A stretch of 64,000 nucleotides of DNA, from the NCBI GenBank assembly GCA_049720225.1, contig JBNASD010000001.1, positions 100,733 through 164,732 on the forward strand. Reading direction: 5' to 3'. Source of the DNA: Microgenomates group bacterium (GTDB lineage: Bacteria; Patescibacteriota; Microgenomatia; PFEM01; JBNASD01). Under the pieces are notes generated by a model. That model saw nothing but the letters and a program-made list of their open reading frames with translations, made no database searches and was not told the DNA's origin. Every line of letters starts with the position of its first letter. Position 1 is the stretch's first letter. Both the position numbers and the translations under genes were made by a program. This document shows, piece after piece, positions 18,387 through 48,808 of this stretch.

Positions 18387-20680
18387 TTTACTTTTCTTTT
18401 TTCCGCCTCATAAACTAACTGACGAGTAGTTTCAATTGCGTCAGGATTAACGGAAATACTGGTAATTCCCCAATCAACTAATTTATCAATTAACCGGGGG
18501 TAAACCGAAGGGGCTTGTCCGCAAATAGAGGAAGTAATTTTTAACTTTTGACAGGTTTTAATTGTTTTTTCAATTGCCCACAAAACTGCCGGATTTTCTT
18601 CAGGATAATAAGGGGCTAAATTTTGATTGTCTCGGTCAACACCTAAAATTAACATTGTTAAATCATTAGAACCAATAGAGACACCATCAATTCCAACTTT
18701 AGCAAATTCTTCCAAAAGAATAACATTCGCGGGAATTTCTACCATTAACCACAATTTAAAACTTGGCCCCCGAATTAATCCCTCCCCAACAATAATTTTT
18801 TTTACTTCTTGAAGTTCTTGGGGAGTGCGACAAAAAGGAATCATTAGCCACAAATTATTATAATTTTTTCTTACCTCTTTTATTGCTTTTAGTTCTAATT
18901 CTAAAATTTCAGGATTAGTGATATAACGAAAAGCACCTCTAAATCCCAACAAAGGGTTTTCTTCTTCAGGTTCAAACGCTTTTCCACCAATTAAATTGCG
19001 ATATTCGTTAGTTTTAAAATCAGTCGTCCGGTAAACTACTGGCCGAGGATAAAAAGCTTTACAGAAAGAAGTTAAATTATTAGCCAATTTTTCGATAAAG
19101 AATTTTTGTTTTTTATCTTTAATAATTTTTTTAGGATGAATCCCAATTTGGGCCATCATAAATTCCGCTCTTAATAAACCGACGCCATCAACATTCCGTT
19201 GGGCAATTTCTTCGGCTAATTCTGGTTCCGCTAAATTAACATAAATTTTCGTGGCAGTTTTTAAAGTGGAAAGAGCAATATTTTCTTCCTTTTTTAAAGG
19301 AGAAAAAACTAAAGAAGTTTGTTTTTTAGCAAAAGGGTTTCCTTTATAAATTTCCCCGGTTGTCCCGTTAATAGTAATGATTTCTCCATTTTTAAGAATT
19401 TTGGTGGCATTTTTTGTTCCCACCACACAAGGAACTCCCAATTCTCGACTAACAATGGCGGCGTGAGAAGTTTGTCCTCCTTTATCAGTGACAATTCCCG
19501 CTACTTTTTTCATTACGGGAACAAAATCAGGATTAGTCATGGGGGTGACTAAGATGTCTCCCTGTTTTACTTTATTAATTTCTTTAATTGAATTAATAAC
19601 AATTACCGGTCCACTCCCTATTCCCGGACTGGCCGGTTGGCCTACTAAAATTGGTTTTTCTTTAATTTTTTTTGCTTTGATGGTTTTCTTTTCCTTAAAA
19701 TTAACGGTCGTTACCGGCCTGGTTTGGAGAATATAAAATTTTCCTTTATACAAAGCCCATTCAATATCCTGGGGATAAAAATAATGGCGGTGAATTTTTT
19801 TACCAATTTGCGCTAATTCAATAATTTGTTTATCGGTTAATTTTCTTTTATTTTGTAATTGAAGGGGTACTGGTTTTTCTTGATTAGGCGTTTTTCCTCT
19901 TTTACTAGGTAATAATTGAATCTTTTGAGGATTAATTTCTTTTTTAATAATATTCAAATTGCTTTTATCTAACCAATAAATATCAGGAGTTACTTTCCCC
20001 CCCACCACATATTCTCCTAGTCCCCAAATTGCCTCAATAATAATTCTATTTTTTTGATTAGTCACCGGATCGCAGGTAAACATAATTCCCGAGACTTCTG
20101 AAGGAATCATTTTTTGAATGACGACCGCGATTCCTACCCTAAAATGGTCAAATCCTTTTTCTTCGCGATAAAAAATCGCTCGCGGTTCAAATAAAGAGGC
20201 CCAACACTCTTTTACTTTTTCAACGACATTTGCCTCGCCTTTAATGTTTAAAAAAGTTTTTTGTTGGCCAGCAAAAGAAGCAGTGGGTAAATCCTCGGCG
20301 GTCGCCGAAGAACGAATAGCAACCTCGGCTTGACTTAAAACCCCTCCTAATTTTAAATAACTTTCAATTATTTCCTTCCCTAAATCCTGGGGAAATTCTT
20401 GAGCCAAAATTAATTTTTTAATTTTTTCCGACGCCTCTAAATAAGTTTCTGGTTTTTTAGGATGAGTTAAGGATAAAAAATTTTTTATTTTAAAGGTAAG
20501 TTTATTTTTTTCTAAAAAATCAAAATAAGCTTTAGCGGTAACGACAAAACCCGGAGGAACAGGAATGCCAAAACTGGCCATCTCCCCCAAATTGGCTCCC
20601 TTTCCTCCCACTAAGGAGATATCATCTTTATCGATTTCTTCAAACCATAAAATATTTTTGTCTTTTTTTTGGGCAGTCAT
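18374..20680 (-). CDS. ppsA: Phosphoenolpyruvate synthase (PEP-utilizing enzyme, three-domain)
   Basis: Has the N-terminal ATP-grasp motif 'VGGKGANLGEM...GIPVPPGF', a central phospho-His domain ('GGQTSHAAIVSRELGVPCVVG'), and a C-terminal PEP-binding TIM ('CGQAPS'). Confidence 0.8.
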   Translation of the reverse strand: MTAQKKDKNILWFEEIDKDDISLVGGKGANLGEMASFGIPVPPGFVVTAKAYFDFLEKNKLTFKIKNFLSLTHPKKPETYLEASEKIKKLILAQEFPQDLGKEIIESYLKLGGVLSQAEVAIRSSATAEDLPTASFAGQQKTFLNIKGEANVVEKVKECWASLFEPRAIFYREEKGFDHFRVGIAVVIQKMIPSEVSGIMFTCDPVTNQKNRIIIEAIWGLGEYVVGGKVTPDIYWLDKSNLNIIKKEINPQKIQLLPSKRGKTPNQEKPVPLQLQNKRKLTDKQIIELAQIGKKIHRHYFYPQDIEWALYKGKFYILQTRPVTTVNFKEKKTIKAKKIKEKPILVGQPASPGIGSGPVIVINSIKEINKVKQGDILVTPMTNPDFVPVMKKVAGIVTDKGGQTSHAAIVSRELGVPCVVGTKNATKILKNGEIITINGTTGEIYKGNPFAKKQTSLVFSPLKKEENIALSTLKTATKIYVNLAEPELAEEIAQRNVDGVGLLRAEFMMAQIGIHPKKIIKDKKQKFFIEKLANNLTSFCKAFYPRPVVYRTTDFKTNEYRNLIGGKAFEPEEENPLLGFRGAFRYITNPEILELELKAIKEVRKNYNNLWLMIPFCRTPQELQEVKKIIVGEGLIRGPSFKLWLMVEIPANVILLEEFAKVGIDGVSIGSNDLTMLILGVDRDNQNLAPYYPEENPAVLWAIEKTIKTCQKLKITSSICGQAPSVYPRLIDKLVDWGITSISVNPDAIETTRQLVYEAEKRKVKWRK

Positions 20681-20681
20681 T

Positions 20682-21077
20682 TTAACCTAAATAAACTTTA
20701 TTACTTTTTCTTTTTTTTCTTGCTTCCTCGGTTTCTGTTCCCCGCTGATAGTCATCTTCTAATCTTACGGTTTTTCCTTTTTCCGGCGTTGAGGCTTCTA
20801 AAATATCACAATCAGTAATTGCCCAACAGCGGTGTTTTGTCATTGGTTTAATAAAATATCCCTTTAAAGGCTTCATTTTTTGCCATCGGCCGTTAAGAAG
20901 AATTTTTGCCTCCCCTTTTAATAAGCATAAAGTTTCTGTTTTTTGGTCATGGTATTGATAACTCAATCTTTTTCCTTTTTCAAGATGAAGAATTTTTCCG
21001 GTAACTGGTGATTCGGGAGGAGTGAAAATCAATTCCCAGCCCCACGGTTTTAAAATTTTTAAAGAAAATGGCTTCAT
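20682..21077 (-). CDS. Cupin-domain protein (phosphomannose-isomerase type II C-terminal-like)
   Basis: 'GKILHLEKGKRLSYQYHDQKTETLCLLKGEAKILLNG' is a cupin type-2 two-His motif. Confidence 0.5.
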   Translation of the reverse strand: MKPFSLKILKPWGWELIFTPPESPVTGKILHLEKGKRLSYQYHDQKTETLCLLKGEAKILLNGRWQKMKPLKGYFIKPMTKHRCWAITDCDILEASTPEKGKTVRLEDDYQRGTETEEARKKRKSNKVYLG

Positions 21078-21086
21078 AATTTCATT

Positions 21087-21764
21087 TTAAAGACTTAAAA
21101 TAACTAGGTCAAGATAGTAATCTAGCGAATAAATCGCTCTTCCGCTTTTTTGTAAATAATCGATAACTAATAATTGAGAATAAAAATTAATTAATTTTTT
21201 TAAATCAAATTTTCTTGCCTGAGCAATTAGTTTTTTTCTTTTCCATGATTCATATTCTTTAAGACCTTCCTCTCCTAAATCTTTGGCAATAATTAAATCT
21301 TTAACATGCCGGTGAAGAAAGTAAAAAATCAATTCTGGTTTTTCTTTTTTTAAGCAACGATGAAAAAGCAATAATGCTTGATTTTTGGTTTCCGGAGAAA
21401 GCGATTCTAAAAACTGAAAAATAATTTTTGGCAATTCAAATATTCTTATTTGGGCAAAAGAAAAAGGAGCTAAAGTCTGAGGAGAAATTTTTTTTCCTTC
21501 CCAAATAATTAAATTTTCTGGTTTTTCTTTTATTAAATATTTAATAATTAAATTTTTTTCCTTATTTCTTGGTGAAGAAAAAAAATTTTCCAGGACCACT
21601 AATTTATCGTTTTTTAAAAGAGATTGACTTTCTAAAGCCTGAAGAAGATTTTCTAAAGCGAGGTTTTTTCCCTCTAAATAAATTACTTCTCCCGAAAAAG
21701 ACTTAACTCTCGAAGTTAAAAATTGCCGCGAGAGAGTAGTATTTTCTCCATGAAGAATTAGCAT
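21087..21764 (-). CDS. holA: DNA polymerase III delta-subunit-like protein (short HolA-like)
   Basis: The N-terminus 'MLILHGENTTLSRQFL...LEGKN' resembles the HolA N-terminal clamp-loader domain. The call is weak. Confidence 0.35.
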   Translation of the reverse strand: MLILHGENTTLSRQFLTSRVKSFSGEVIYLEGKNLALENLLQALESQSLLKNDKLVVLENFFSSPRNKEKNLIIKYLIKEKPENLIIWEGKKISPQTLAPFSFAQIRIFELPKIIFQFLESLSPETKNQALLLFHRCLKKEKPELIFYFLHRHVKDLIIAKDLGEEGLKEYESWKRKKLIAQARKFDLKKLINFYSQLLVIDYLQKSGRAIYSLDYYLDLVILSL

Positions 21765-21772
21765 TATAATAT

Positions 21773-22024
21773 TTATTCTACTTTATAAACTTCATCGCCT
21801 TCTTTTACCGGTTGGTCAACTTTCATTCCTACCGTTTGTCCTTTATCCGCCTCATTTACTGGTTGGTGTTCGATTTGCATTGACTGTACTGTTTGGGTGA
21901 ATTCTTGACCATGGCCGGTAATTTTAATTTGATCCCCTACCTTAAGAGGAGAAAGAACCTCTACCACCGCTACTCCAATTCGGTCAAAATAGTGAGTAAT
22001 TTTTCCGGCTAAAATATCCGCCAT
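21773..22024 (-). CDS. Small conserved hypothetical protein (EF-Tu domain-2-like beta-barrel)
   Basis: An 83-aa ORF that is Gly/Val/Lys-rich and beta-rich. No definitive motif was found. Confidence 0.35.
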   Translation of the reverse strand: MADILAGKITHYFDRIGVAVVEVLSPLKVGDQIKITGHGQEFTQTVQSMQIEHQPVNEADKGQTVGMKVDQPVKEGDEVYKVE

Positions 22025-22045
22025 TATCTCACCTCCTTCCTTTTT

Positions 22046-22524
22046 TCAGATTTTACCATTTTTGATCTTCCAATGACAAATCGCCACCGCCAAGGCATCG
22101 GCCGCATGAGTTGGTCGGGGAACTTTTTTTAGTTTTAAAATTTTTTTTACCTGAGATTGAATTTGATTTTTCTTTGCTCGGCCATTTTCTGTAAGCATCA
22201 TTTTAATTTTTAAAGGAGGATATTCTACTACTTGAATTTTTTTTCTTTCCGCCGCTAACTTAATTACGCCCATTGCCTGACCAACCGCAGAAGCGGATTT
22301 GGCATTGGTATTGAAAAAAAGAGTTTCTAAGGCTAAAACTTGGGGTTTATGGTCGCGAATAATTTTTAGGGTTTGTTTGTAAATTAAATCCAATCTTTTT
22401 GGGGAACTTAAATGATTAGAAGTTTTAATACTTCCGTGGCAAAGAAGAGTAATTTTTTGAGAACGACATTCAATAATTCCGTAACCAGTTTCCGCCGTTC
22501 CCGGATCAATACCGAGAATTTTCA
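22046..22524 (-). CDS. ruvC: Crossover junction endodeoxyribonuclease RuvC
   Basis: 'MKILGIDPGTAETGYGII' carries the first catalytic Asp; 'LALETLFF' (Glu), 'PTHAADALAVAICH' (Asp/His) follow. The N-terminal 80 aa of the track ORF are rejected as spurious. Confidence 0.85.
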
Positions 22525-22571
22525 TAAAATTAAGTATAGCAAAAGAAAGGCGAACGAGTAAATAAAAAAAT

Positions 22572-22655
22572 ATGCCGGGAAGAGATAAATAAAAATAATA
22601 ATGGTGTGCTTCGCTTTGGAAGCTCCCCCCCAAAAAAACTATCTCTTCCCGGCAA
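22572..22655 (-). terminator. Nested-hairpin intrinsic terminator with a 15-bp outer stem and an inner GCTTC/GAAGC stem
   Basis: tgccgggaagagata...tatctcttcccggca lies directly downstream, on the minus strand, of the 22665..23006 gene. Confidence 0.5.
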
Positions 22656-22664
22656 ATAAAAATC

Positions 22665-23006
22665 TTACCCAGAGCAAATCGTCGCCATCGTGACGATTGC
22701 TCCAATTCCGAGAATAATCTGCCCCACGCGCAACAAAAACACACCCGGTATCCACAGGGCGTATTCATCATTCATTGCTGTCTCTACCGAAAATTTCCAT
22801 GGAGGCGCGCACACCACCGCGCCTTGCACACTCTTGACCAAATCCTTTTCGGAAGAACTGCTCTTTTCAATGATGACAAAAATGGTCCTTCCGGGCAAAA
22901 GGAGGCGTCTTCCCCTCCATGCGAGATTTATCAGGAATTGAGGGATAATTCCCAATTCCATGATCATCAATCCCACCAAGATCAAAATTATGCCGAAGCC
23001 TTCCAT
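22665..23006 (-). CDS. Small hypothetical membrane protein (113 aa), compositionally GC-rich
   Basis: A strong RBS 'aaaaaggaggg' sits 7 nt upstream of the ATG (MEGFGIILILVGL...). GC is about 48% versus about 32% in the flanks. It has two or three TM segments. Confidence 0.5.
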   Translation of the reverse strand: MEGFGIILILVGLMIMELGIIPQFLINLAWRGRRLLLPGRTIFVIIEKSSSSEKDLVKSVQGAVVCAPPWKFSVETAMNDEYALWIPGVFLLRVGQIILGIGAIVTMATICSG

Positions 23007-23170
23007 TTTCAAACCCTCCTTTTTTTAAATGTGCGGCTAATTTGAATTTTACCCCAAAACCAAAAAATATTCAACATTATAGGTTTAAAAATAAAATTTT
23101 GATTAGTATTAATAATTTTTTTCTGGTATAATATTTTGTGTTCTTTGAAAATTAAAGTTAATCCGATCGT

Positions 23171-23224
23171 GGGTCCGTATCCGCCAGCCGGCGGACAACT
23201 GGCGAACTTTTAAGCAGTTGTTAT
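23171..23224 (+). pseudogene. tRNA-Lys-derived fragment, 5' acceptor 9 nt plus anticodon-loop/3'-stem 14 nt with a GC-rich palindromic insert
   Basis: gggtccgta...cttttaagcagttg is identical to segments of the adjacent intact tRNA-Lys. It lacks the D- and T-arms. Confidence 0.5.
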
Positions 23225-23297
23225 GGGTCCGTAGCTCAGAGGTAGAGCAGCTGCCTTTTAAGCAGTTGGTCGAGCGTTCGATTCGCTCCGGACCCAC
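23225..23297 (+). tRNA. tRNA-Lys (anticodon TTT)
   Basis: GGGTCCGTAGCTCAGAGGTAGAGC...anticodon loop CUUUUAA...GTTCGATTC...CGGACCCA. Confidence 0.85.
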
Positions 23298-23318
23298 CCT
23301 ACCCTAGATCCACCTTTC

Positions 23319-23392
23319 GGCCCCGTCGTCTAGCGGCCTAGGACGTCAGCTTTTCAGGCTGAAGGTCGGGGGTTCGAATCCCCCCGGGGTCA
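23319..23392 (+). tRNA. tRNA-Glu (anticodon TTC)
   Basis: GGCCCCGTCGTCTAGCGGCCTAGGACG...anticodon loop UUUUCAG...GGTTCGAATCC...CGGGGTCA. Confidence 0.85.
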
Positions 23393-23449
23393 CTTTTTGA
23401 AAGCGGTGTCTTCTTAACAATCGGTTCCAAACTTTAAAGGAGGTGGCTT

Positions 23450-23668
23450 ATGTCTTCGAGATGTCCTGCTTGTGGTGGAACTGGCAGGCAGAAAGATGGC
23501 GAGTATCTTAAGGAAAGAGATTGTCGAGTTTGTGGAGGAACAGGAATATTTTCCTCCACATCAACTTCTGACGACAATTGTCTGAGGTGCGAAGGGAGAG
23601 GTTGGTATTTCAGCGATCAGGGTTTACCCACAATTTGTACCTGCAGGAGAGCACGAAAGAAAAAATAA
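23450..23668 (+). CDS. Small standalone zinc-finger protein with three DnaJ-type CxxCxGxG repeats
   Basis: Contains CPACGGTG, CRVCGGTG and CLRCEGRG, with the RBS 'aaaggaggtggctt' upstream of the ATG. It is GC-rich relative to the genome. Confidence 0.55.
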   Translation: MSSRCPACGGTGRQKDGEYLKERDCRVCGGTGIFSSTSTSDDNCLRCEGRGWYFSDQGLPTICTCRRARKKK

Positions 23669-23670
23669 AT

Positions 23671-23769
23671 AAAAAAGCCCGAAGTAATATGGAGGGTAAT
23701 CAAATAATGGAGCATAGCGCTCTACAATTTTATTTTGATTACCTTCTTTTAAAACTTCGGGCTTTTTTT
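23671..23769 (+). ncRNA. Structured element A: triple-nested hairpin (outer AGCCCGAAGT/ACTTCGGGCT, middle GGTAATCAAA/TTTGATTACC, inner GAGC-AUAGC-GCUC) ending in a T-run. It is a terminator or small-RNA candidate.
   Basis: Perfect inverted repeats with a T7 tract. Element B has the same architecture and the same AUAGC apical loop, with compensatory stem changes. Confidence 0.45.
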
Positions 23770-23817
23770 ATTTTTAACCACTTTTATTTGCAAATTATCC
23801 TATAATGTGATATAATA
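23770..23817 (+). promoter_or_regulatory. Promoter module copy 1: TTGCAA, a 17-nt spacer, then an extended -10 TGaTATAAT
   Basis: -35 at 23788-23793 and -10 at 23811-23816. A 55-nt block is nearly identical to 24389-24443. Confidence 0.55.
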
Positions 23818-23981
23818 GCCTTGATTTAAGATAAAAAAGAAATTGAATTTTTGTTCTTTGAAAATTTAAAAAAATTCTTTATCCGAATCGGTAACCTTTT
23901 GGGCATTAATAAAAAATTAATAAATTAGTGTTCAAAAAGTTGCCGATTCGGGCACAATCTTGGAGTTGGAGGTGAAGAAGA

Positions 23982-24293
23982 ATGGCGCTCCGATTATTGA
24001 TCCCCACAACAAGGTTTGCGATCGCACAGTGGTTGCCCCATGGAGAAGAGACACCGATAGTGGTGGTCGGAGGAAAGTGGAACAATGTCGTCATCAGGCA
24101 TAATCCAAAAGGGATGACGGGGCTACTCAGTATACAGAGGGGATTTCCCCTCTCCGTAAGGTCTCTCACGATAGTCGTAAACGGAGACCCAGCGAGGATC
24201 ACTTTCATCTTCTTGGAGCGTCTTCCAGACACAATCCACGTACCGGAGGAATTGAAGAGGTACCTGAAGTTTGAGCAGGTGGTGAAGAGGTAA
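23982..24293 (+). CDS. Hypothetical protein (103 aa), GC-rich
   Basis: RBS 'ttggaggtgaagaagaATG'. Flanked upstream by promoter module 1 and downstream by element B. The antisense 108-aa ORF is disfavoured because it lacks an RBS or terminator. Confidence 0.45.
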   Translation: MALRLLIPTTRFAIAQWLPHGEETPIVVVGGKWNNVVIRHNPKGMTGLLSIQRGFPLSVRSLTIVVNGDPARITFIFLERLPDTIHVPEELKRYLKFEQVVKR

Positions 24294-24295
24294 AC

Positions 24296-24396
24296 CGAGA
24301 AAGCCGGGAATAAAGAGGATATTTAACTCACCCCTGACATAGCGTCAGGAAAAAGGATGAGTTTTATATCCGATTTACACTTCCCGGCTTTTTTTA
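24296..24396 (+). ncRNA. Structured element B: nested hairpin (outer AGCCGGGAA/TTCCCGGCT, GGATAT/ATATCC, inner CCTGAC-AUAGC-GTCAGG) ending in a T-run
   Basis: Same topology and apical loop as element A, and immediately followed by promoter module copy 2. Confidence 0.45.
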
Positions 24397-24443
24397 TTTT
24401 TAACCACTTTTATTTGCAAATTATCCTATAATGTGATACAATA
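24389..24443 (+). promoter_or_regulatory. Promoter module copy 2: TTGCAA, a 17-nt spacer, then TACAAT
   Basis: -35 at 24414-24419 and -10 at 24437-24442. It differs from copy 1 by 1-2 nt. Confidence 0.5.
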
Positions 24444-24564
24444 TCCTTTACTATACATTTAAAAACAAAAGGTAAGATTTAATAATTATGGAAAGAAAAA
24501 GAGCATCCTTTATGGAGTTTTAGAGCGTATAATCGAAAGTGTCGGTATAATAGCAATAAATAGT

Positions 24565-25155
24565 TTGATAAATGACGCGCTCAAAACTTTAGAAAGAAAA
24601 AAAGATCTTTTTCAATCAAATTCGGCAGAAGAAGTCACGATAGAAAGTTTTTATAACAGTTTACTTAGTTTTTTCAAATTTTTTTCTAAAAAATCTTCTG
24701 GAAAATCTCCGGAAGAATTTTTAAAGCAAATATCTCAAGAGTGGAATAATGGCGCCAATAAGTTTACCGATTTAAATAAAGGAAAAATCGAAAGATTAGG
24801 ACAAATAATTATGGGTGGTTATAAGGGGTTGCTATGGTTATATAAAAACCCTTCTTGGCTAATTCATTTAATTGAATTAATGACTTGGGATTTATTTCAG
24901 CGTGTAGGAAAAGACCCTGACTCTAAATTATTTTTAATTTTGTTAACTGTCGGATTAGTTGAAGAAGAAGAACTCTCACTCCCTGAGCTTTATTCTGATA
25001 AACTAAAAGCAAAAGGGGAATATATAGCCTCCTTAATTAACTGCAATAAACCAGAAAGAGAGGAATCGCTTCGATTACCCGAATTAATTAAAAAAATTTT
25101 CTCTTCAGATTTACTAACTTACTCTCCTTCGGTTTTTGGTTATTCTTCAAATTAA
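24565..25155 (+). CDS. Hypothetical protein (about 196 aa, start uncertain)
   Basis: ORF downstream of promoter copy 2 with AT-rich, host-like composition. No recognisable motif. Confidence 0.35.
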   Translation: MINDALKTLERKKDLFQSNSAEEVTIESFYNSLLSFFKFFSKKSSGKSPEEFLKQISQEWNNGANKFTDLNKGKIERLGQIIMGGYKGLLWLYKNPSWLIHLIELMTWDLFQRVGKDPDSKLFLILLTVGLVEEEELSLPELYSDKLKAKGEYIASLINCNKPEREESLRLPELIKKIFSSDLLTYSPSVFGYSSN

Positions 25156-25240
25156 ATATTTCTTTAAAATTTTCTTCCCCAATAGCGTGTTTTGTTTATT
25201 TTTCGAAAAATAAAAAATTTTTAAATATAATTTTATAATA

Positions 25241-25356
25241 AAAAAACGCCTGAGGTTTTTTAAGTAAAGAGTTTTGATTTAAGATAAGAGTTGCTTAAAT
25301 TATAACTCTTATCTTTTTTTAACTCTTTACGACTTCAGGCGTTTTTTGTTTTTTTC
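25241..25356. terminator. Bidirectional nested-hairpin terminator between convergent genes
   Basis: Outer stem aaaacgcctgaggt/acttcaggcgtttt, middle GTAAAGAGTT/AACTCTTTAC, inner GATAAGAGTT/AACTCTTATC. There are T/A runs on both sides. Confidence 0.55.
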
Positions 25357-25366
25357 AGAGGTCCAA

Positions 25367-25831
25367 TTATCTTAAGACCCCCGAAAACAGGAGCAACAAC
25401 TTCAAGAGTAATGCTTGGATAAAAGACAACTTAGCAGGAAGCAGTTGCATTTCAACTGCCCTGCTAAATATATCCGGAATCGCCCAATTCCACAAAATCA
25501 TCGTCAAAACCACCGCCAAGAAGAAGAAACCGACCTTGGCAAATATCATAAAGAGGCGCCAACCAAAAGTTTCCTCTCCATCTTCATCATCTAGGGGTAG
25601 TCTCCCCATCCCCAATACCACAAGTAATAAACACGTCTTGATCGTTTGGGCTGTGGTTAATGTTGCGGGTATGATACCCGCATTAACCAAGGTTGGTAAA
25701 AACCTGGGCATCAGTTTTGCCCACACCCACTGGAATAAAAAGATAGCAATGAAGAAACACACGAAGTAGACTAAAGCCTTCCCCACAATCATTAATGCCA
25801 TTTCCCGAAGTTCTTCTGCTTTTTCGTTCAT
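25367..25831 (-). CDS. Hypothetical membrane protein (4 TM) with an acidic loop
   Basis: RBS 'ttggaggtgaaagATG' on the minus strand. Contains hydrophobic helices and the loop 'LDDEDGEETFGW'. Confidence 0.5.
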   Translation of the reverse strand: MNEKAEELREMALMIVGKALVYFVCFFIAIFLFQWVWAKLMPRFLPTLVNAGIIPATLTTAQTIKTCLLLVVLGMGRLPLDDEDGEETFGWRLFMIFAKVGFFFLAVVLTMILWNWAIPDIFSRAVEMQLLPAKLSFIQALLLKLLLLFSGVLR

Positions 25832-26313
25832 CTTTCACCTCCAAATTTAAAATGGGATTTCGGACACGAATAATTTTTAAAAGTGCAAAATACGATCCTT
25901 TTCCTAACGTATTAAATTATACCATTAAGAATTTAAATGTCAATATTATAGGATACTATAGTAAAAATTTCTTAACTGTTTATAACCCTTAAATAAAGTT
26001 ATAAAGACTTTAAATATAGAGAAAAATTAGAGTTTAAAATTATAATTCTTTAGAAATGGAAATGAAGAGAATAGCTTCAATTTAGACTTATATTGCAGGC
26101 TTTTTAAATTAGTAATGGAATTTTTTAAGCGTCTAAATCGGAGATTTCATAAATATGAAGAAAAAAGAAGTTATTATTAAAAATTTATTTTTTCCTAAAA
26201 TTTTTATGCAAAAAGAAAAAATAAATAAAAAATTTCAGATCAATAGTTAGTCTTTAATAATTTTTAATCTAAAAAATATTAGAAAAAAGAAATACCTTTC
26301 TTTTGGATGTTTT

Positions 26314-26913
26314 TCATGCTTTTTTAATCCCGAACTCCTCCCCATGCCCCGGAAAAATAATTGTTTGGGGAGGTAATAAAAAAATTCGCTTAATTGATTT
26401 TTCTAAATCCTTGTAAGAACTATAAGAAAAATCGGTTCTCCCTACTCCATCAGCAAAAATTAAATCCCCAGAAAAAAGAAAATTTTCTGCCAAAAAACTG
26501 ACACTTCCTGGAGTATGACCGGGAGTAAATAAAACTTTTATTTTTTCTTTTTGAAAAACAATTTCTTGACCCTCTTCTAAAAATTTATCCGGCGGTAAAA
26601 TTGGCTCTGGATTTATACCGGTAAAAAATTTTGCCGATTGGGAAGCTCTTTTTAAAAGAAATAAATCTTTTTGATGAATTAAAAAGGGAATATTAAAGAC
26701 TAACTTCAATTCCGTTACTGCTAAAATATGATCAAAATGGCCGTGGGTAGCTAAAATGAATTTAGGAGAAAAACCTAATTGGTTAATTTTTTCAATGAGA
26801 TATTCTCCATCGTCTCCCGGATCAATGATCACTCCTTCATTACTTTCTTCCTCCCAAACTAAATAACAATTAGTCCGTAATTGACCAACAACTATCTTTT
26901 CAACTTTTATCAT
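26314..26913 (-). CDS. MBL-fold metallo-hydrolase (glyoxalase II-like)
   Basis: Has the 'ATHGHFDH' metal-binding motif and a later 'PGHTPGS' histidine. Confidence 0.8.
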   Translation of the reverse strand: MIKVEKIVVGQLRTNCYLVWEEESNEGVIIDPGDDGEYLIEKINQLGFSPKFILATHGHFDHILAVTELKLVFNIPFLIHQKDLFLLKRASQSAKFFTGINPEPILPPDKFLEEGQEIVFQKEKIKVLFTPGHTPGSVSFLAENFLFSGDLIFADGVGRTDFSYSSYKDLEKSIKRIFLLPPQTIIFPGHGEEFGIKKA

Positions 26914-26926
26914 TTTTAAAATCTTT

Positions 26927-27241
26927 TTAAACTTTTACTGCCGCTTTTCCTACTCTTTCCCGAAGATAGTAAAGTTTTGCCCGGCGTACCTTTCCTTGTT
27001 TTTTGACTTTTATTTTTTCAATCCAGGGAGAATTTAACGGCCAAATTCTTTCAACTCCAATCCCGCCGGTGGCAATTTTTCTTACCGTAAAGGTTTTGTT
27101 TTCTCCCCTTCCTCGAATGGCAATGACAATTCCCTCAAAATTTTGGATTCTCGTTTTTCCTCCCTCAATAATTTTTTGGGAAACAATTACCGTATCCCCT
27201 ACTTTAAAAGTGGTATCCTTAAATTTTGCCTGATTAGCCAT
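26927..27241 (-). CDS. rplS: 50S ribosomal protein L19
   Basis: '[22 protein letters not shown]...[21 protein letters not shown]' matches the L19 consensus. Confidence 0.9.
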
Positions 27242-27388
27242 GAGGAAATTCTATCAAGAAAAAGAAAAAAATACAAGGGAAAAATTTATTGATACTATAA
27301 GTTGAAAATCCAAAAAATTTAAGCTATAATAATTTTCGGTACCTTGAAAGTAGTCGTTCGAACAAGTTTGTATTAAAGGAGGGAGAAA

Positions 27389-47662: not shown

Positions 47663-48808
47663 TTAATTTCTTTTTCCTAAAACTTTTTTGTAGACTTCTT
47701 CTAATTTTTTTGCCCCAATCTTTGCATCAAAATATTTTACCGCTCTTTCTCTCGCTTTTTTGCCATATTCTTCTCTCATTTTTGGATTTAAAATAAATTT
47801 TTTAATTGCTTCAGCAAGTGATAAAAAGTCCGCTGGTTGAACTTTTAACGCCGCCTCGCCGACATTTTCTTCAATTGCTCCTGATAAAGTGGTTACAATA
47901 GGTAATCCTGAAGCCTGCGCTTCAAGTAAAACAGTGGAAAATTGTTCTTGCCAATGGCGAGTCGCTCTGGAGGGTGCCACAAAAATATCTGCTTTTTGAT
48001 ATTCTTCAGGCATTTTTTCATAAGAAACAGTTTTATGGATTATTTTATCTGTAATTCCCATTCTTTTTTCTAATTCTAAAAGTCTTTTCTTCTCACTTCC
48101 CTCTCCTACCATTGTAAAAATCAAATTGTAGTCTTTAAGTTCTTCATCAGTAAGCAATTTTTTGGCCGCAAAAATCACCTCATAAACTCCTTTGTATAAC
48201 TCCAATCTGCCAACAAAAAGTATATTTATTTTCTTTTGAAAATTGAAAATTGAAAATTGAAAATTTCTGCTCGGCTTAAATGCCGAGCAGTCAATATGTT
48301 GATTAATTATTGTAATTTTTTTCGGATTCGCTCCTTCTAAAATTAGTGCCTCTCGTGAACGGTTAGAAATCGCAATAATATGATCCAATTCCTCAATGGC
48401 TCTTTTTTTAAATCTTTTTCTTCCCCAAATTCCTTCATTGCCAAAGGGAATATTTTCAAAAACAGTTGCCACCACTTTTTTCACCCATCCTTTCTTTTTA
48501 GCATTTAAACATTGTTGAGTAAAATGCATATAGGTCTCTGCACAATGAGCAATATCAAAACCTTTTAAATGTCTTTCCAAACCAAATAAATATTGAGCAT
48601 CAATAAAAATGCGGTTTAAAATTGGCATTTTGTAAGGAAAATTAGGCAAATCCATTGGAGAGGGAAGCTTAACTACCGGAAAGGCAAATTGACTATGAAA
48701 AGGTTTTAAACTGCCAAAACCAACTAAGTGATATTTCTTAACCAGCGGTTCATAAAACTGCATTTCATATTTATTTAAGTGTTTCCCCCGAACAATAGCA
48801 ATCTTCAT
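47663..48808 (-). CDS. Glycosyltransferase family 4 (GT1 superfamily, GT-B)
   Basis: The C-terminal motif 'TVLLEAQASGLPIVTT' (E..7E-like) and the two-Rossmann-domain length support this call. Confidence 0.8.
   Translation of the reverse strand: MKIAIVRGKHLNKYEMQFYEPLVKKYHLVGFGSLKPFHSQFAFPVVKLPSPMDLPNFPYKMPILNRIFIDAQYLFGLERHLKGFDIAHCAETYMHFTQQCLNAKKKGWVKKVVATVFENIPFGNEGIWGRKRFKKRAIEELDHIIAISNRSREALILEGANPKKITIINQHIDCSAFKPSRNFQFSIFNFQKKINILFVGRLELYKGVYEVIFAAKKLLTDEELKDYNLIFTMVGEGSEKKRLLELEKRMGITDKIIHKTVSYEKMPEEYQKADIFVAPSRATRHWQEQFSTVLLEAQASGLPIVTTLSGAIEENVGEAALKVQPADFLSLAEAIKKFILNPKMREEYGKKARERAVKYFDAKIGAKKLEEVYKKVLGKRN

Follow-up and report, generated by a model that had tools for sequence, protein, structure and literature searches.

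In fungal mitochondria, free-standing GIY-YIG open reading frames (ORFs) insert at the 3' end of genes and bring a replacement end with them, as in the case of Allomyces atp6. Mobile GC-rich palindromes are found in AT-rich genomes, examples being the yeast mitochondrial GC clusters and the Rickettsia palindromic elements. In T4/T6-like phages the tRNA gene cluster encodes SegB, a free-standing GIY-YIG homing endonuclease; its cuts fall inside tRNA genes, and recombination-dependent repair leads to segmental duplications with whole or truncated copies (PMC13096335). The known prokaryotic sources of tRNA fragments are integrase-mediated integration, with its attL and attR sites, and CRISPR spacer uptake (PMC9897764). 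GIY-YIG genes in the candidate phyla radiation (CPR) have been discussed only for rRNA insertions (PMC11270868). Here we analyzed a 64-kb stretch of DNA (hereafter the window; GC content approximately 33%) from a metagenome-assembled genome (MAG) of the Microgenomates (Patescibacteria/CPR), in which a 50-nt fragment related to tRNA-Lys (positions 23171-23220) lies just upstream of an intact tRNA-Lys(UUU) gene. We propose that this fragment is a decayed solo relic, standing without its nuclease gene, of a small mobile nuclease element that targets tRNA-Lys(UUU) in Patescibacteria, and we put the probability of this reading at roughly three in four.

The element is recognized by pseudo-copies which we call Lys*. 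These are partial copies of tRNA-Lys whose positions 24-31 (the end of the D-stem and the 5' strand of the anticodon stem) are swapped for the palindrome TCCGCC-N4-GGCGGA, after which the anticodon loop follows as CTTTTAAG. An earlier scan with an AACT-type version of the motif gave no matches in genomes and only 3 contigs in metagenomes, so that pattern was too narrow. Scanning one genome per species with TCCGCCNNNNGGCGGACTTTTAAGC, which covers palindrome and anticodon loop, returned 61 stretches, almost all of them from Patescibacteria MAGs. The hosts comprise Moran-, Falkow-, Gottesman-, Shapiro-, Azam- and Buchananbacteria, Paceibacterota, Saccharibacteria and Microgenomates. By combining ARAGORN, a GIY-YIG hidden Markov model and the motif we counted 94 motifs in 72 non-redundant loci (numbered L001, L002 and so on). 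All have the same arms, and those in loci with an intact tRNA-Lys(UUU) lie on its strand. The typical order, represented by 24 motifs, is a 5' fragment, an intact GIY-YIG gene and tRNA-Lys; five motifs follow the order tRNA-Lys, intact gene, 3' copy. A further 27 belong to 5' fragments that precede tRNA-Lys with no gene between them (gap 13-94 nt), and in about 16 species, as in the window, the GIY-YIG gene is found nowhere in the locus. In 43 of the 56 cases, at least 20 of the 23 nt upstream of the palindrome agreed with the neighbouring tRNA. Most of the poorer flanks belonged to solo fragments, whose weaker match to the tRNA fits decay after gene loss. The loci have a common architecture, a palindrome at a specific position and a restriction to tRNA-Lys(UUU), with a variant at tRNA-Asn.

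The features of the window at this site are as follows.

23124..23132, + strand: promoter-like extended -10 element TGGTATAAT, found by direct reading, 5' of the fragment and tRNA-Lys
23171..23179, + strand: Lys* block 1, GGGTCCGTA, an exact copy of tRNA-Lys positions 1-9 (23225-23233)
23180..23195, no strand: 16-nt palindrome TCCGCCAGCCGGCGGA (TCCGCC-AGCC-GGCGGA), the hallmark of Lys*
23196..23206, + strand: CAACTGGCGAA, equal to the right-hand 11 nt of an AACT-type palindrome (TCCGC-CAACTGGCGGA), the second at this site, except for one G>A change
23207..23220, + strand: Lys* block 2, CTTTTAAGCAGTTG, comprising the anticodon loop, the 3' anticodon stem and the start of the variable region
23221..23224, + strand: TTAT, the 4-nt spacer from the fragment to the intact tRNA (compare TAA or ATAA in L013, L015 and L009)
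23225..23297, + strand: intact tRNA-Lys(UUU), the target of the element family (ARAGORN 23224-23299; Rfam tRNA 73.6 bits, 23225-23296)
23319..23393, + strand: intact tRNA-Glu(UUC), the conserved partner of tRNA-Lys, after a 19-nt spacer

The original prediction, made from the letters of the window, had described a reused 5' nonamer of tRNA-Lys, a reused stretch of 14 nt from the anticodon loop and 3' stem and a GC-rich palindrome between them. All three were found again: GGGTCCGTA at 23171-23179 repeats 23225-23233, CTTTTAAGCAGTTG at 23207-23220 is an exact repeat of 23255-23268 (tRNA-Lys positions 32-45), and TCCGCCAGCCGGCGGA is the sole match to TCCGCC-N4-GGCGGA in the 64 kb, where 0.03 were expected. 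Taken singly the two tRNA-derived blocks are weak (BLAST E 3.2 and 0.013). Scoring the fragment as a tRNA, which had been suggested as well, yielded nothing: 23171-23224 has no match to the Rfam tRNA family (RF00005) even at E<=10, ARAGORN calls no tRNA in it, and a permissive Rfam search of 23000-24500 gave only chance microRNA-like matches on hairpins and none on the fragment.

We then scored the window with a Lys* covariance model built from 48 independent copies of other organisms (filters off; its E-values are rough). The fragment reached 22.9 bits (E about 1e-3 over 64 kb) and ranked second after the real tRNA-Lys; the remnant in the relative L001 reached 22.7 bits. In the model alignment the window fragment carries a 13-nt deletion after block 1, which corresponds to the D-arm of better-preserved members, and a 12-nt insertion inside the palindrome region. 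It has the exact palindrome, a flank that matches the tRNA, the same strand as the intact tRNA-Lys(UUU) and a distance of 4 nt from it, and the 11-nt partial second palindrome intervenes between the first palindrome and the loop copy at 23207. The complete palindrome is of the AGCC type of L013 and identical to that in the L013 5' fragment (L013 3543-3558), and the AACT type is present in L001 (GCCAACTGGCGGA), L004, L007 and L009. The GIY-YIG ORF is absent from every frame of the window; an adjacent GIY-YIG gene is typical of the Lys* family but is not required for a relic. The 19-nt spacer between tRNA-Lys and tRNA-Glu is free of a GIY-YIG remnant, unlike that of L001. Upstream, TGGTATAAT has no -35 match and is hence unlisted in the consensus promoter scan. 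Counterparts stand at the same relative place in L001 (TGATATAAT) and L002 (TGGTAAAAT). A leader of about 38 nt separates TGGTATAAT from the fragment, which would be part of the pre-tRNA leader if TGGTATAAT is used as a promoter.

The same locus was located in close relatives through their RuvC homologues (74-86% identity). The shared gene order is L19, a metallo-beta-lactamase-fold gene, the pair tRNA-Glu and tRNA-Lys, RuvC, an 83-aa gene, holA, a 129-aa gene and PPDK. On the BLAST map the conserved blocks are 20009-22545, the tRNAs at 23193-23394 and 26333-27253 of the window. The space between the beta-lactamase-fold gene and RuvC is different in every relative.

L002: promoter, tRNA-Lys, 17 nt, tRNA-Glu; no fragment seen 5' of tRNA-Lys; the contig ends inside tRNA-Glu
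L012: tRNA-Glu, tRNA-Lys and an intact GIY-YIG gene (89 aa), followed by a second copy of tRNA-Lys that is truncated at its 5' end (Lys*)
L013: the arrangement of L012 plus a 5' fragment before tRNA-Lys, with the palindrome TCCGCCAGCCGGCGGA as in the window
L004: GIY-YIG gene frameshifted; no 5' fragment
L009: GIY-YIG gene frameshifted; one 5' fragment
L007: GIY-YIG gene frameshifted; two tandem 5' fragments
L001: palindrome remnant GCCAACTGGCGGACTTTTAAGCAGTT 5' of tRNA-Lys; a 17-codon N-terminal GIY-YIG remnant between tRNA-Lys and tRNA-Glu

L001 is the closest relative that has the locus on its contig (86% RuvC identity). In the pseudo-copies at this locus TCCGCC-N4-GGCGGA stands in place of the native GCAGCTGC (tRNA positions 24-31), and the anticodon loop comes directly after the palindrome. 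One homologous site is found in sporadic states: apparently clean in L002, with an intact gene in L012 and L013, frameshifted in L004, L007 and L009, reduced to a remnant in L001 and solo in the window. This series looks like the cycle of gain, decay and loss of a homing endonuclease, with the window at the stage of loss. The original prediction had named related genomes as the test of its idea of a mobile footprint at the tRNA-Lys/Glu locus, an identical arrangement free of indels being the outcome that would speak against it. The relatives differ here in almost every respect, with pronounced indel polymorphism, and the idea was right in spirit, by way of a pseudo-copy associated with a GIY-YIG gene. 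The orientation of the tRNA pair also varies: tRNA-Lys and tRNA-Glu point away from RuvC in one set and along RuvC in the other (window, L001 and L004 versus L007, L009, L012 and L013). As tRNA-Glu lies on the side of the beta-lactamase-fold gene in both sets, a single inversion of the pair is insufficient as an explanation.

The nuclease itself is a protein of 81-90 aa that is filled by the GIY-YIG catalytic domain (for L012, Pfam PF01541 at 1.7e-17), and the L012 protein has 99 homologues at E<1e-5. Homologues with 60-82% identity lie in unrelated gene neighbourhoods, yet the same module adjoins tRNA-Lys(UUU) and Lys*. The 38 intact genes are 28-98% identical (median 53%). Residues Y5, Y16, R26, H30 and E67 are invariant among them and G18 is conserved in 97%; invariance of the catalytic residues implies selection for nuclease activity. 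The gene is closely fitted to its surroundings on both sides. Its start codon stands just behind the copy of the anticodon loop; among the 29 genes with an upstream palindrome, 27 have it 10-36 nt after the palindrome. In at least nine loci (L018 2250-2270, for instance) its stop codon is the TAG of tRNA positions 8-10, the conserved U8-A9-G10, of the intact tRNA; L012 (3905-3920), L013 and L015 instead use the TAG within the GGTAGA of the pseudo-copy. With the stop codon inside the tRNA, RNase P cleavage of the transcript would strip the stop from the mRNA. The palindrome destroys positions 24-31 in one tRNA copy, and an intact copy always remains beside the gene. The best matches of solved structure were the UPF0213 proteins BH0048 (8.4e-8) and EF2693 (4e-5), followed by SLX1 (5.8e-3) and I-TevI (0.029). 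SLX1 acts together with SLX4 on branched DNA.

The design is also found at other tRNA genes. In L080/L081 (1445-1815) a 5' fragment of tRNA-Asn(GUU) carries the palindrome TCCGCCAGCTGGCGGA in its D-loop. Downstream of the fragment is a GIY-YIG gene that has 49% identity to that of L012 and overlaps the intact tRNA-Asn with its last codons and stop, so the family has at least one other tRNA target. In L084 (1364-1990), a Balneolaceae MAG, tRNA-Val(UAC) is followed by a hairpin, an 88-aa GIY-YIG gene and a scrambled tRNA-Val copy with another GC-rich hairpin (ATCGGG...CCCGAT). Beyond that copy, the hairpin and the start of the gene recur once more in degenerate form. L084 is the same design outside Patescibacteria with another palindrome.

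These arrangements suggest how the element may spread. The nuclease would cut an element-free tRNA-Lys gene, and the break would be repaired from an element-bearing copy, to which the pseudo-copy would offer a partner for one end of the break and the intact copy a partner for the other. Such a repair would copy in the gene and the palindrome and duplicate part of the tRNA, which amounts to homing by double-strand-break repair. The nuclease gene would then decay and be deleted, and the palindrome-bearing 5' fragment would stay behind in the pre-tRNA leader. The relic of the window would have decayed further: its D-arm would have been lost, two tandem fragments probably fused and one G>A change arisen in the second palindrome. 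A collapse of two tandem 5' fragments, such as those of L007, would be the simplest reading of CAACTGGCGAA. The relic is most likely neutral baggage that is transcribed with tRNA-Lys and removed by 5' processing.

Several points weigh against a homing element and its relic. The protein lacks a DNA-binding domain, unlike the characterized GIY-YIG homing enzymes: homing endonucleases have a separate domain of this kind, and the 81-90 aa hold the catalytic domain only. This lowers the case for a classical homing endonuclease, not that for a gene that spreads like one. Furthermore, the intact tRNA-Lys beside the gene has the sequence of a naive target, so if the target lay entirely within the tRNA, genomes that bear the element would be expected to suffer cuts as well. 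No compensatory variation is seen in the palindrome arms. Most of the examples were gathered with a pattern that fixes the arms and are therefore a biased sample; the loci derived from the protein (L012, L013, L015, L017, L018 and L081) agree on the arms, the sole deviation being the 3' copy of L013 (TCCACC). Finally, that two tandem fragments collapsed in the window has been reconstructed rather than observed.

What might the palindrome be for? Its arms are invariant across proteins of about 50% identity and across targets (tRNA-Lys and tRNA-Asn). Its centre is often the native AGCT, which gives the palindrome the look of a native GC-AGCT-GC expanded symmetrically by 4+4 nt. The hairpin of the family consists of a 6-bp GC stem and a 4-nt loop, with CTTTTAA (4 T only) after it, and the terminator scan makes no call on it; the hairpin of the window is 11 nt from its T-run. 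It may mark the cut site as immune, serve as an operator, form an RNA hairpin or attenuator before the start codon, block recombination between the repeats or be the substrate of a structure-specific nuclease. A bolder proposal, which we regard as tentative and rather unlikely, is that the palindrome is an active part of a new kind of homing element, in which a minimal SLX1/UPF0213-like GIY-YIG nuclease recognizes it as a hairpin, a cruciform or a dimer site and in which it serves as operator or immunity mark. On the same proposal the palindrome may 'poison' the duplicated tRNA-Lys, so that recombination by which the nuclease gene is deleted tends to destroy what is perhaps the sole tRNA-Lys(UUU) gene. 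If true, this would make the element a structure-guided, self-stabilizing parasite of tRNA genes across Patescibacteria, with sister designs on tRNA-Asn and tRNA-Val.

Two further ideas about the palindrome were considered. Palindromes as breakers of homology against repeat-mediated deletion are weakened by a perfect 43-nt block in the 3' copy of L012. Palindrome halves as terminal inverted repeats were rejected, as the nuclease gene never lies between half-sites. Additional palindromes were seen in some pseudo-copies. The longer 3' pseudo-copies of L008 (1184-1244), L021, L022, L023 and L043 have a second one with the same arms in the T-loop, and L023, L039 and L065 have a further one with the same arms in the acceptor/D region.

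The family might instead be an addiction module similar to toxin-antitoxin systems, or a domesticated module, in which Lys* RNA or DNA restrains the nuclease or in which loss of the gene by recombination leaves a dead tRNA-Lys behind; even then the window fragment would be a relic. A hairpin followed by CUUUU 10-36 nt before the nuclease start codon would suit such a module, the tandem 5' fragments of L007 loosely resemble type III antitoxin repeats, and the invariant palindrome arms suggest a specific ligand. The closest solved relatives, moreover, are UPF0213 proteins and the structure-specific SLX1 and not site-specific enzymes. We nevertheless consider this alternative unlikely. There is no likeness to known type III toxins, and the window ORFs have no PADLOC match. 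Strong addiction is hard to reconcile with the frequency of frameshifted, truncated and lost genes in surviving hosts, and the pattern of invasion, decay and loss, together with the varied arrangements, fits a selfish homing gene better.

A distinctly improbable alternative is that the fragment is a functional leader RNA, that is, a cis element under selection which mimics the anticodon arm, competes for the 3' acceptor strand and so tunes processing, or acts as a decoy for an anticodon nuclease or LysRS. Its position between a promoter-like site and the tRNA means that it would be co-transcribed, and about 16 species do retain solo fragments. When the region is folded to minimum free energy, the upstream GUGGGUCCG forms 9 bp with the 3' acceptor strand, compared with 7; this competition is of little weight because the folding model disfavours the cloverleaf even for the tRNA alone. 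The fragment is absent 5' of tRNA-Lys in L002, a remnant in L001 and of different structure in each relative. Solo fragments, as described above, match the tRNA less than those accompanied by a gene, and that of the window has lost its D-arm and gained 11 nt between palindrome and loop.

The original prediction had likened the pattern to an att-site-like duplication at a tRNA target, which corresponds to an integrase-type island in tRNA-Lys or tRNA-Glu with the fragment and the short repeats as att duplications. Partial tRNA copies are indeed left at tRNA genes, which are common integration sites (PMC9897764), and the tRNA pair of the window is adjoined by two stretches of window-specific DNA that hold ORFans.

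22546..23192, no strand: window-specific DNA of about 0.65 kb between RuvC and the tRNA pair, where relatives have 31-90 nt (BLAST map)
23395..26332, no strand: window-specific DNA of 2.9 kb from tRNA-Glu to the metallo-beta-lactamase-fold gene, where relatives have 0-100 nt; no bounding tRNA repeats

We regard an island origin of the fragment as very improbable. Whereas att-type duplications contain the 3' part of the tRNA, the fragment copies its anticodon loop and its 5' acceptor strand; it abuts the intact tRNA on the upstream side. The 14-nt and '45-nt' repeats, which had been offered as island boundaries, do not bound the window-specific DNA, and no repeat of the tRNA-Glu or tRNA-Lys 3' end was found at its far ends. 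The five larger window-specific ORFs belong to no recognizable Pfam, PHROGs or PADLOC family, apart from weak CxxC zinc-finger matches of a 72-aa ORF, so no integrase or recombinase was recognized. In addition, dozens of genomes have this kind of fragment beside a GIY-YIG gene where there is no island. That the resemblance is due to chance, or that tRNA-Lys underwent a private local duplication unrelated to any element, has a negligible probability even though the shared blocks are short (9-10 and 14 nt, with the BLAST E-values given above), as the blocks are colinear, adjacent to the tRNA and on its strand, the flanked 16-mer is unique in the window and stands at the equivalent place in L013 with its arms in 94 copies elsewhere, and the family model gives an E-value of about 1e-3.

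The window-specific DNA deserves a description of its own. On the minus strand of the 0.65-kb stretch is a 115-aa ORFan (22665-23012) that has a strong Shine-Dalgarno site. The 2.9 kb contain a 72-aa CxxC zinc-finger ORF, ORFans of 103 aa and 196 aa and a 154-aa membrane ORF. This stretch can be described as three cassettes, each with a promoter (TTGCAA-17-TATAAT), a 5' untranslated region (UTR), an ORFan and a near-perfect hairpin of about 100 nt that ends in a T-run. The cassette hairpins are located at 23664-23775 (z = -10.3), 24290-24400 (z = -9.5) and 25241-25347. A 91-nt unit of terminator tail plus promoter is duplicated (23748-23838 versus 24374-24464, 85%). The ORFans of 103 aa (23982-24293) and 196 aa (24565-25155) have good Shine-Dalgarno sites and a GC content above that of the genome; the former has no homologue but itself in 5.8 billion protein clusters and the latter none but itself in 1.84 billion representatives. 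The 72-aa ORF (23450-23668) stands directly after tRNA-Glu and has three CxxCxGxG zinc-finger repeats and a strong Shine-Dalgarno site. It matches the DnaJ central domain and Anti-TRAP weakly, has no exact protein on record in the collection and may be co-transcribed with the tRNAs. The tRNA-Lys/Glu spot is thus a hot spot of gene gain and loss which accepts foreign DNA in a genome that is otherwise syntenic with its relatives. Nothing links the insertions to the fragment.

The original prediction had further proposed that a leader of about 45 nt upstream of the fragment is duplicated downstream and was captured by foreign genes. Of this, an AT-rich block of 22-24 nt (23133-23156 versus 23847-23869) was recovered, which includes the exact 15-mer TGTTCTTTGAAAATT at 23139-23153 and, on the plus strand, at 23852-23866. 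The match outscores all 2000 shuffles. With the same scoring over the whole window, an equal-scoring match occurs near 35.4 kb and near-equal ones occur at 35.5 and 45.4 kb. The pieces ATCCGATCG and ATCCGAATCGG, which had been counted as part of the match, are too short to count. We therefore do not consider a leader duplication established; there is a short AT-rich match only, capture of a duplicated leader by foreign genes is unsupported beyond it, and the 15-mer is probably not part of the element. The 9-bp long-range stem that had been noted in the second copy does pair, but as the base of an ordinary local hairpin (23883-23951) in the 5' UTR of the 103-aa ORF, with 28-nt arms that are 82% complementary (z = -5.9). 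Elsewhere in the window, 47906-47920 is an exact 15-nt match to positions 47-61 of tRNA-Leu(CAG) far from any tRNA gene (BLAST E 0.004).

Very small nuclease elements of fixed anatomy, specific for the tRNA-Lys(UUU) gene, are present in dozens of Patescibacteria species. For the annotation of MAGs this matters because Lys* copies can be miscalled as tRNA genes and inflate the apparent copy number of tRNA-Lys. In L072 (3008-3089), a complete palindrome-bearing pseudo-copy of tRNA-Lys is called 'tRNA-???(ggcg)' by ARAGORN. Several motif-bearing third-party annotation (TPA) assemblies (L020, L025, L045, L052, L057-L059, L062 and L073-L075) are titled 'uncultured Gammaproteobacteria' or 'Bdellovibrionales'; their modules of tRNA-Lys and GIY-YIG gene resemble the patescibacterial ones, so these assemblies may be mislabelled. 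A scan of viral contigs with the bare 16-mer gave 55 matches, mostly in GC-rich phages, and none was near a tRNA or had tRNA-like flanks, so these matches were treated as background. The elements raise testable questions: how a catalytic domain of 85 aa achieves target specificity, how it coexists with an intact essential target and what purpose the palindrome serves.

We found no description of this arrangement or of the 16-mer in the literature, the coverage of which was incomplete. The family, a putative free-standing GIY-YIG homing gene at tRNA genes of which the window would carry a relic member, thus seems to be undescribed. How does it compare with known systems? The UPF0213 proteins (YhbQ/COG2827-like) are of the same size and are likewise single-domain, stand-alone GIY-YIG proteins; no link between them and tRNA genes or mobility was found described in the literature searched. 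Like the GC clusters of yeast mitochondria and the palindromes of Rickettsia, the family has a short GC-rich palindrome that recurs at several positions (anticodon stem, T-loop and D region) of RNA genes in AT-rich DNA. In contrast to these, the Lys* palindrome is confined to tRNA pseudo-copies tied to one nuclease family, and its single occurrence in the 64-kb window indicates that it is not dispersed. The free-standing GIY-YIG genes of fungal mitochondria resemble Lys* in that the nuclease carries part of its target, the target stays functional and the displaced part remains as an adjacent pseudo-copy; they differ in having protein-coding targets in organelles, larger proteins and no palindrome as hallmark.

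Fragments that stem from integrases or CRISPR uptake share with Lys* that a piece of a tRNA lies near an intact tRNA gene and can be miscalled by annotation tools. Integrase fragments, however, are 3' parts which bound islands of kilobase scale with an integrase, whereas the Lys* copies include 5' parts and are found within 100-400 nt, on either side of a gene of about 260 nt, with the palindrome altering their interior. The closest documented parallel is SegB, with a GIY-YIG gene among tRNA genes and a sporadic presence. Sequence similarity to SegB is confined to the GIY-YIG domain (SegE_GIY-YIG, Pfam E 0.0055). SegB has a C-terminal part whose truncation abolishes toxicity (PMC13096335), whereas the Lys* nucleases consist of the catalytic domain only, and no conserved palindrome is reported for SegB. 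Unlike SegB, which is a phage gene without preference for a tRNA isotype, the Lys* family is chromosomal in Patescibacteria and tied to tRNA-Lys(UUU).

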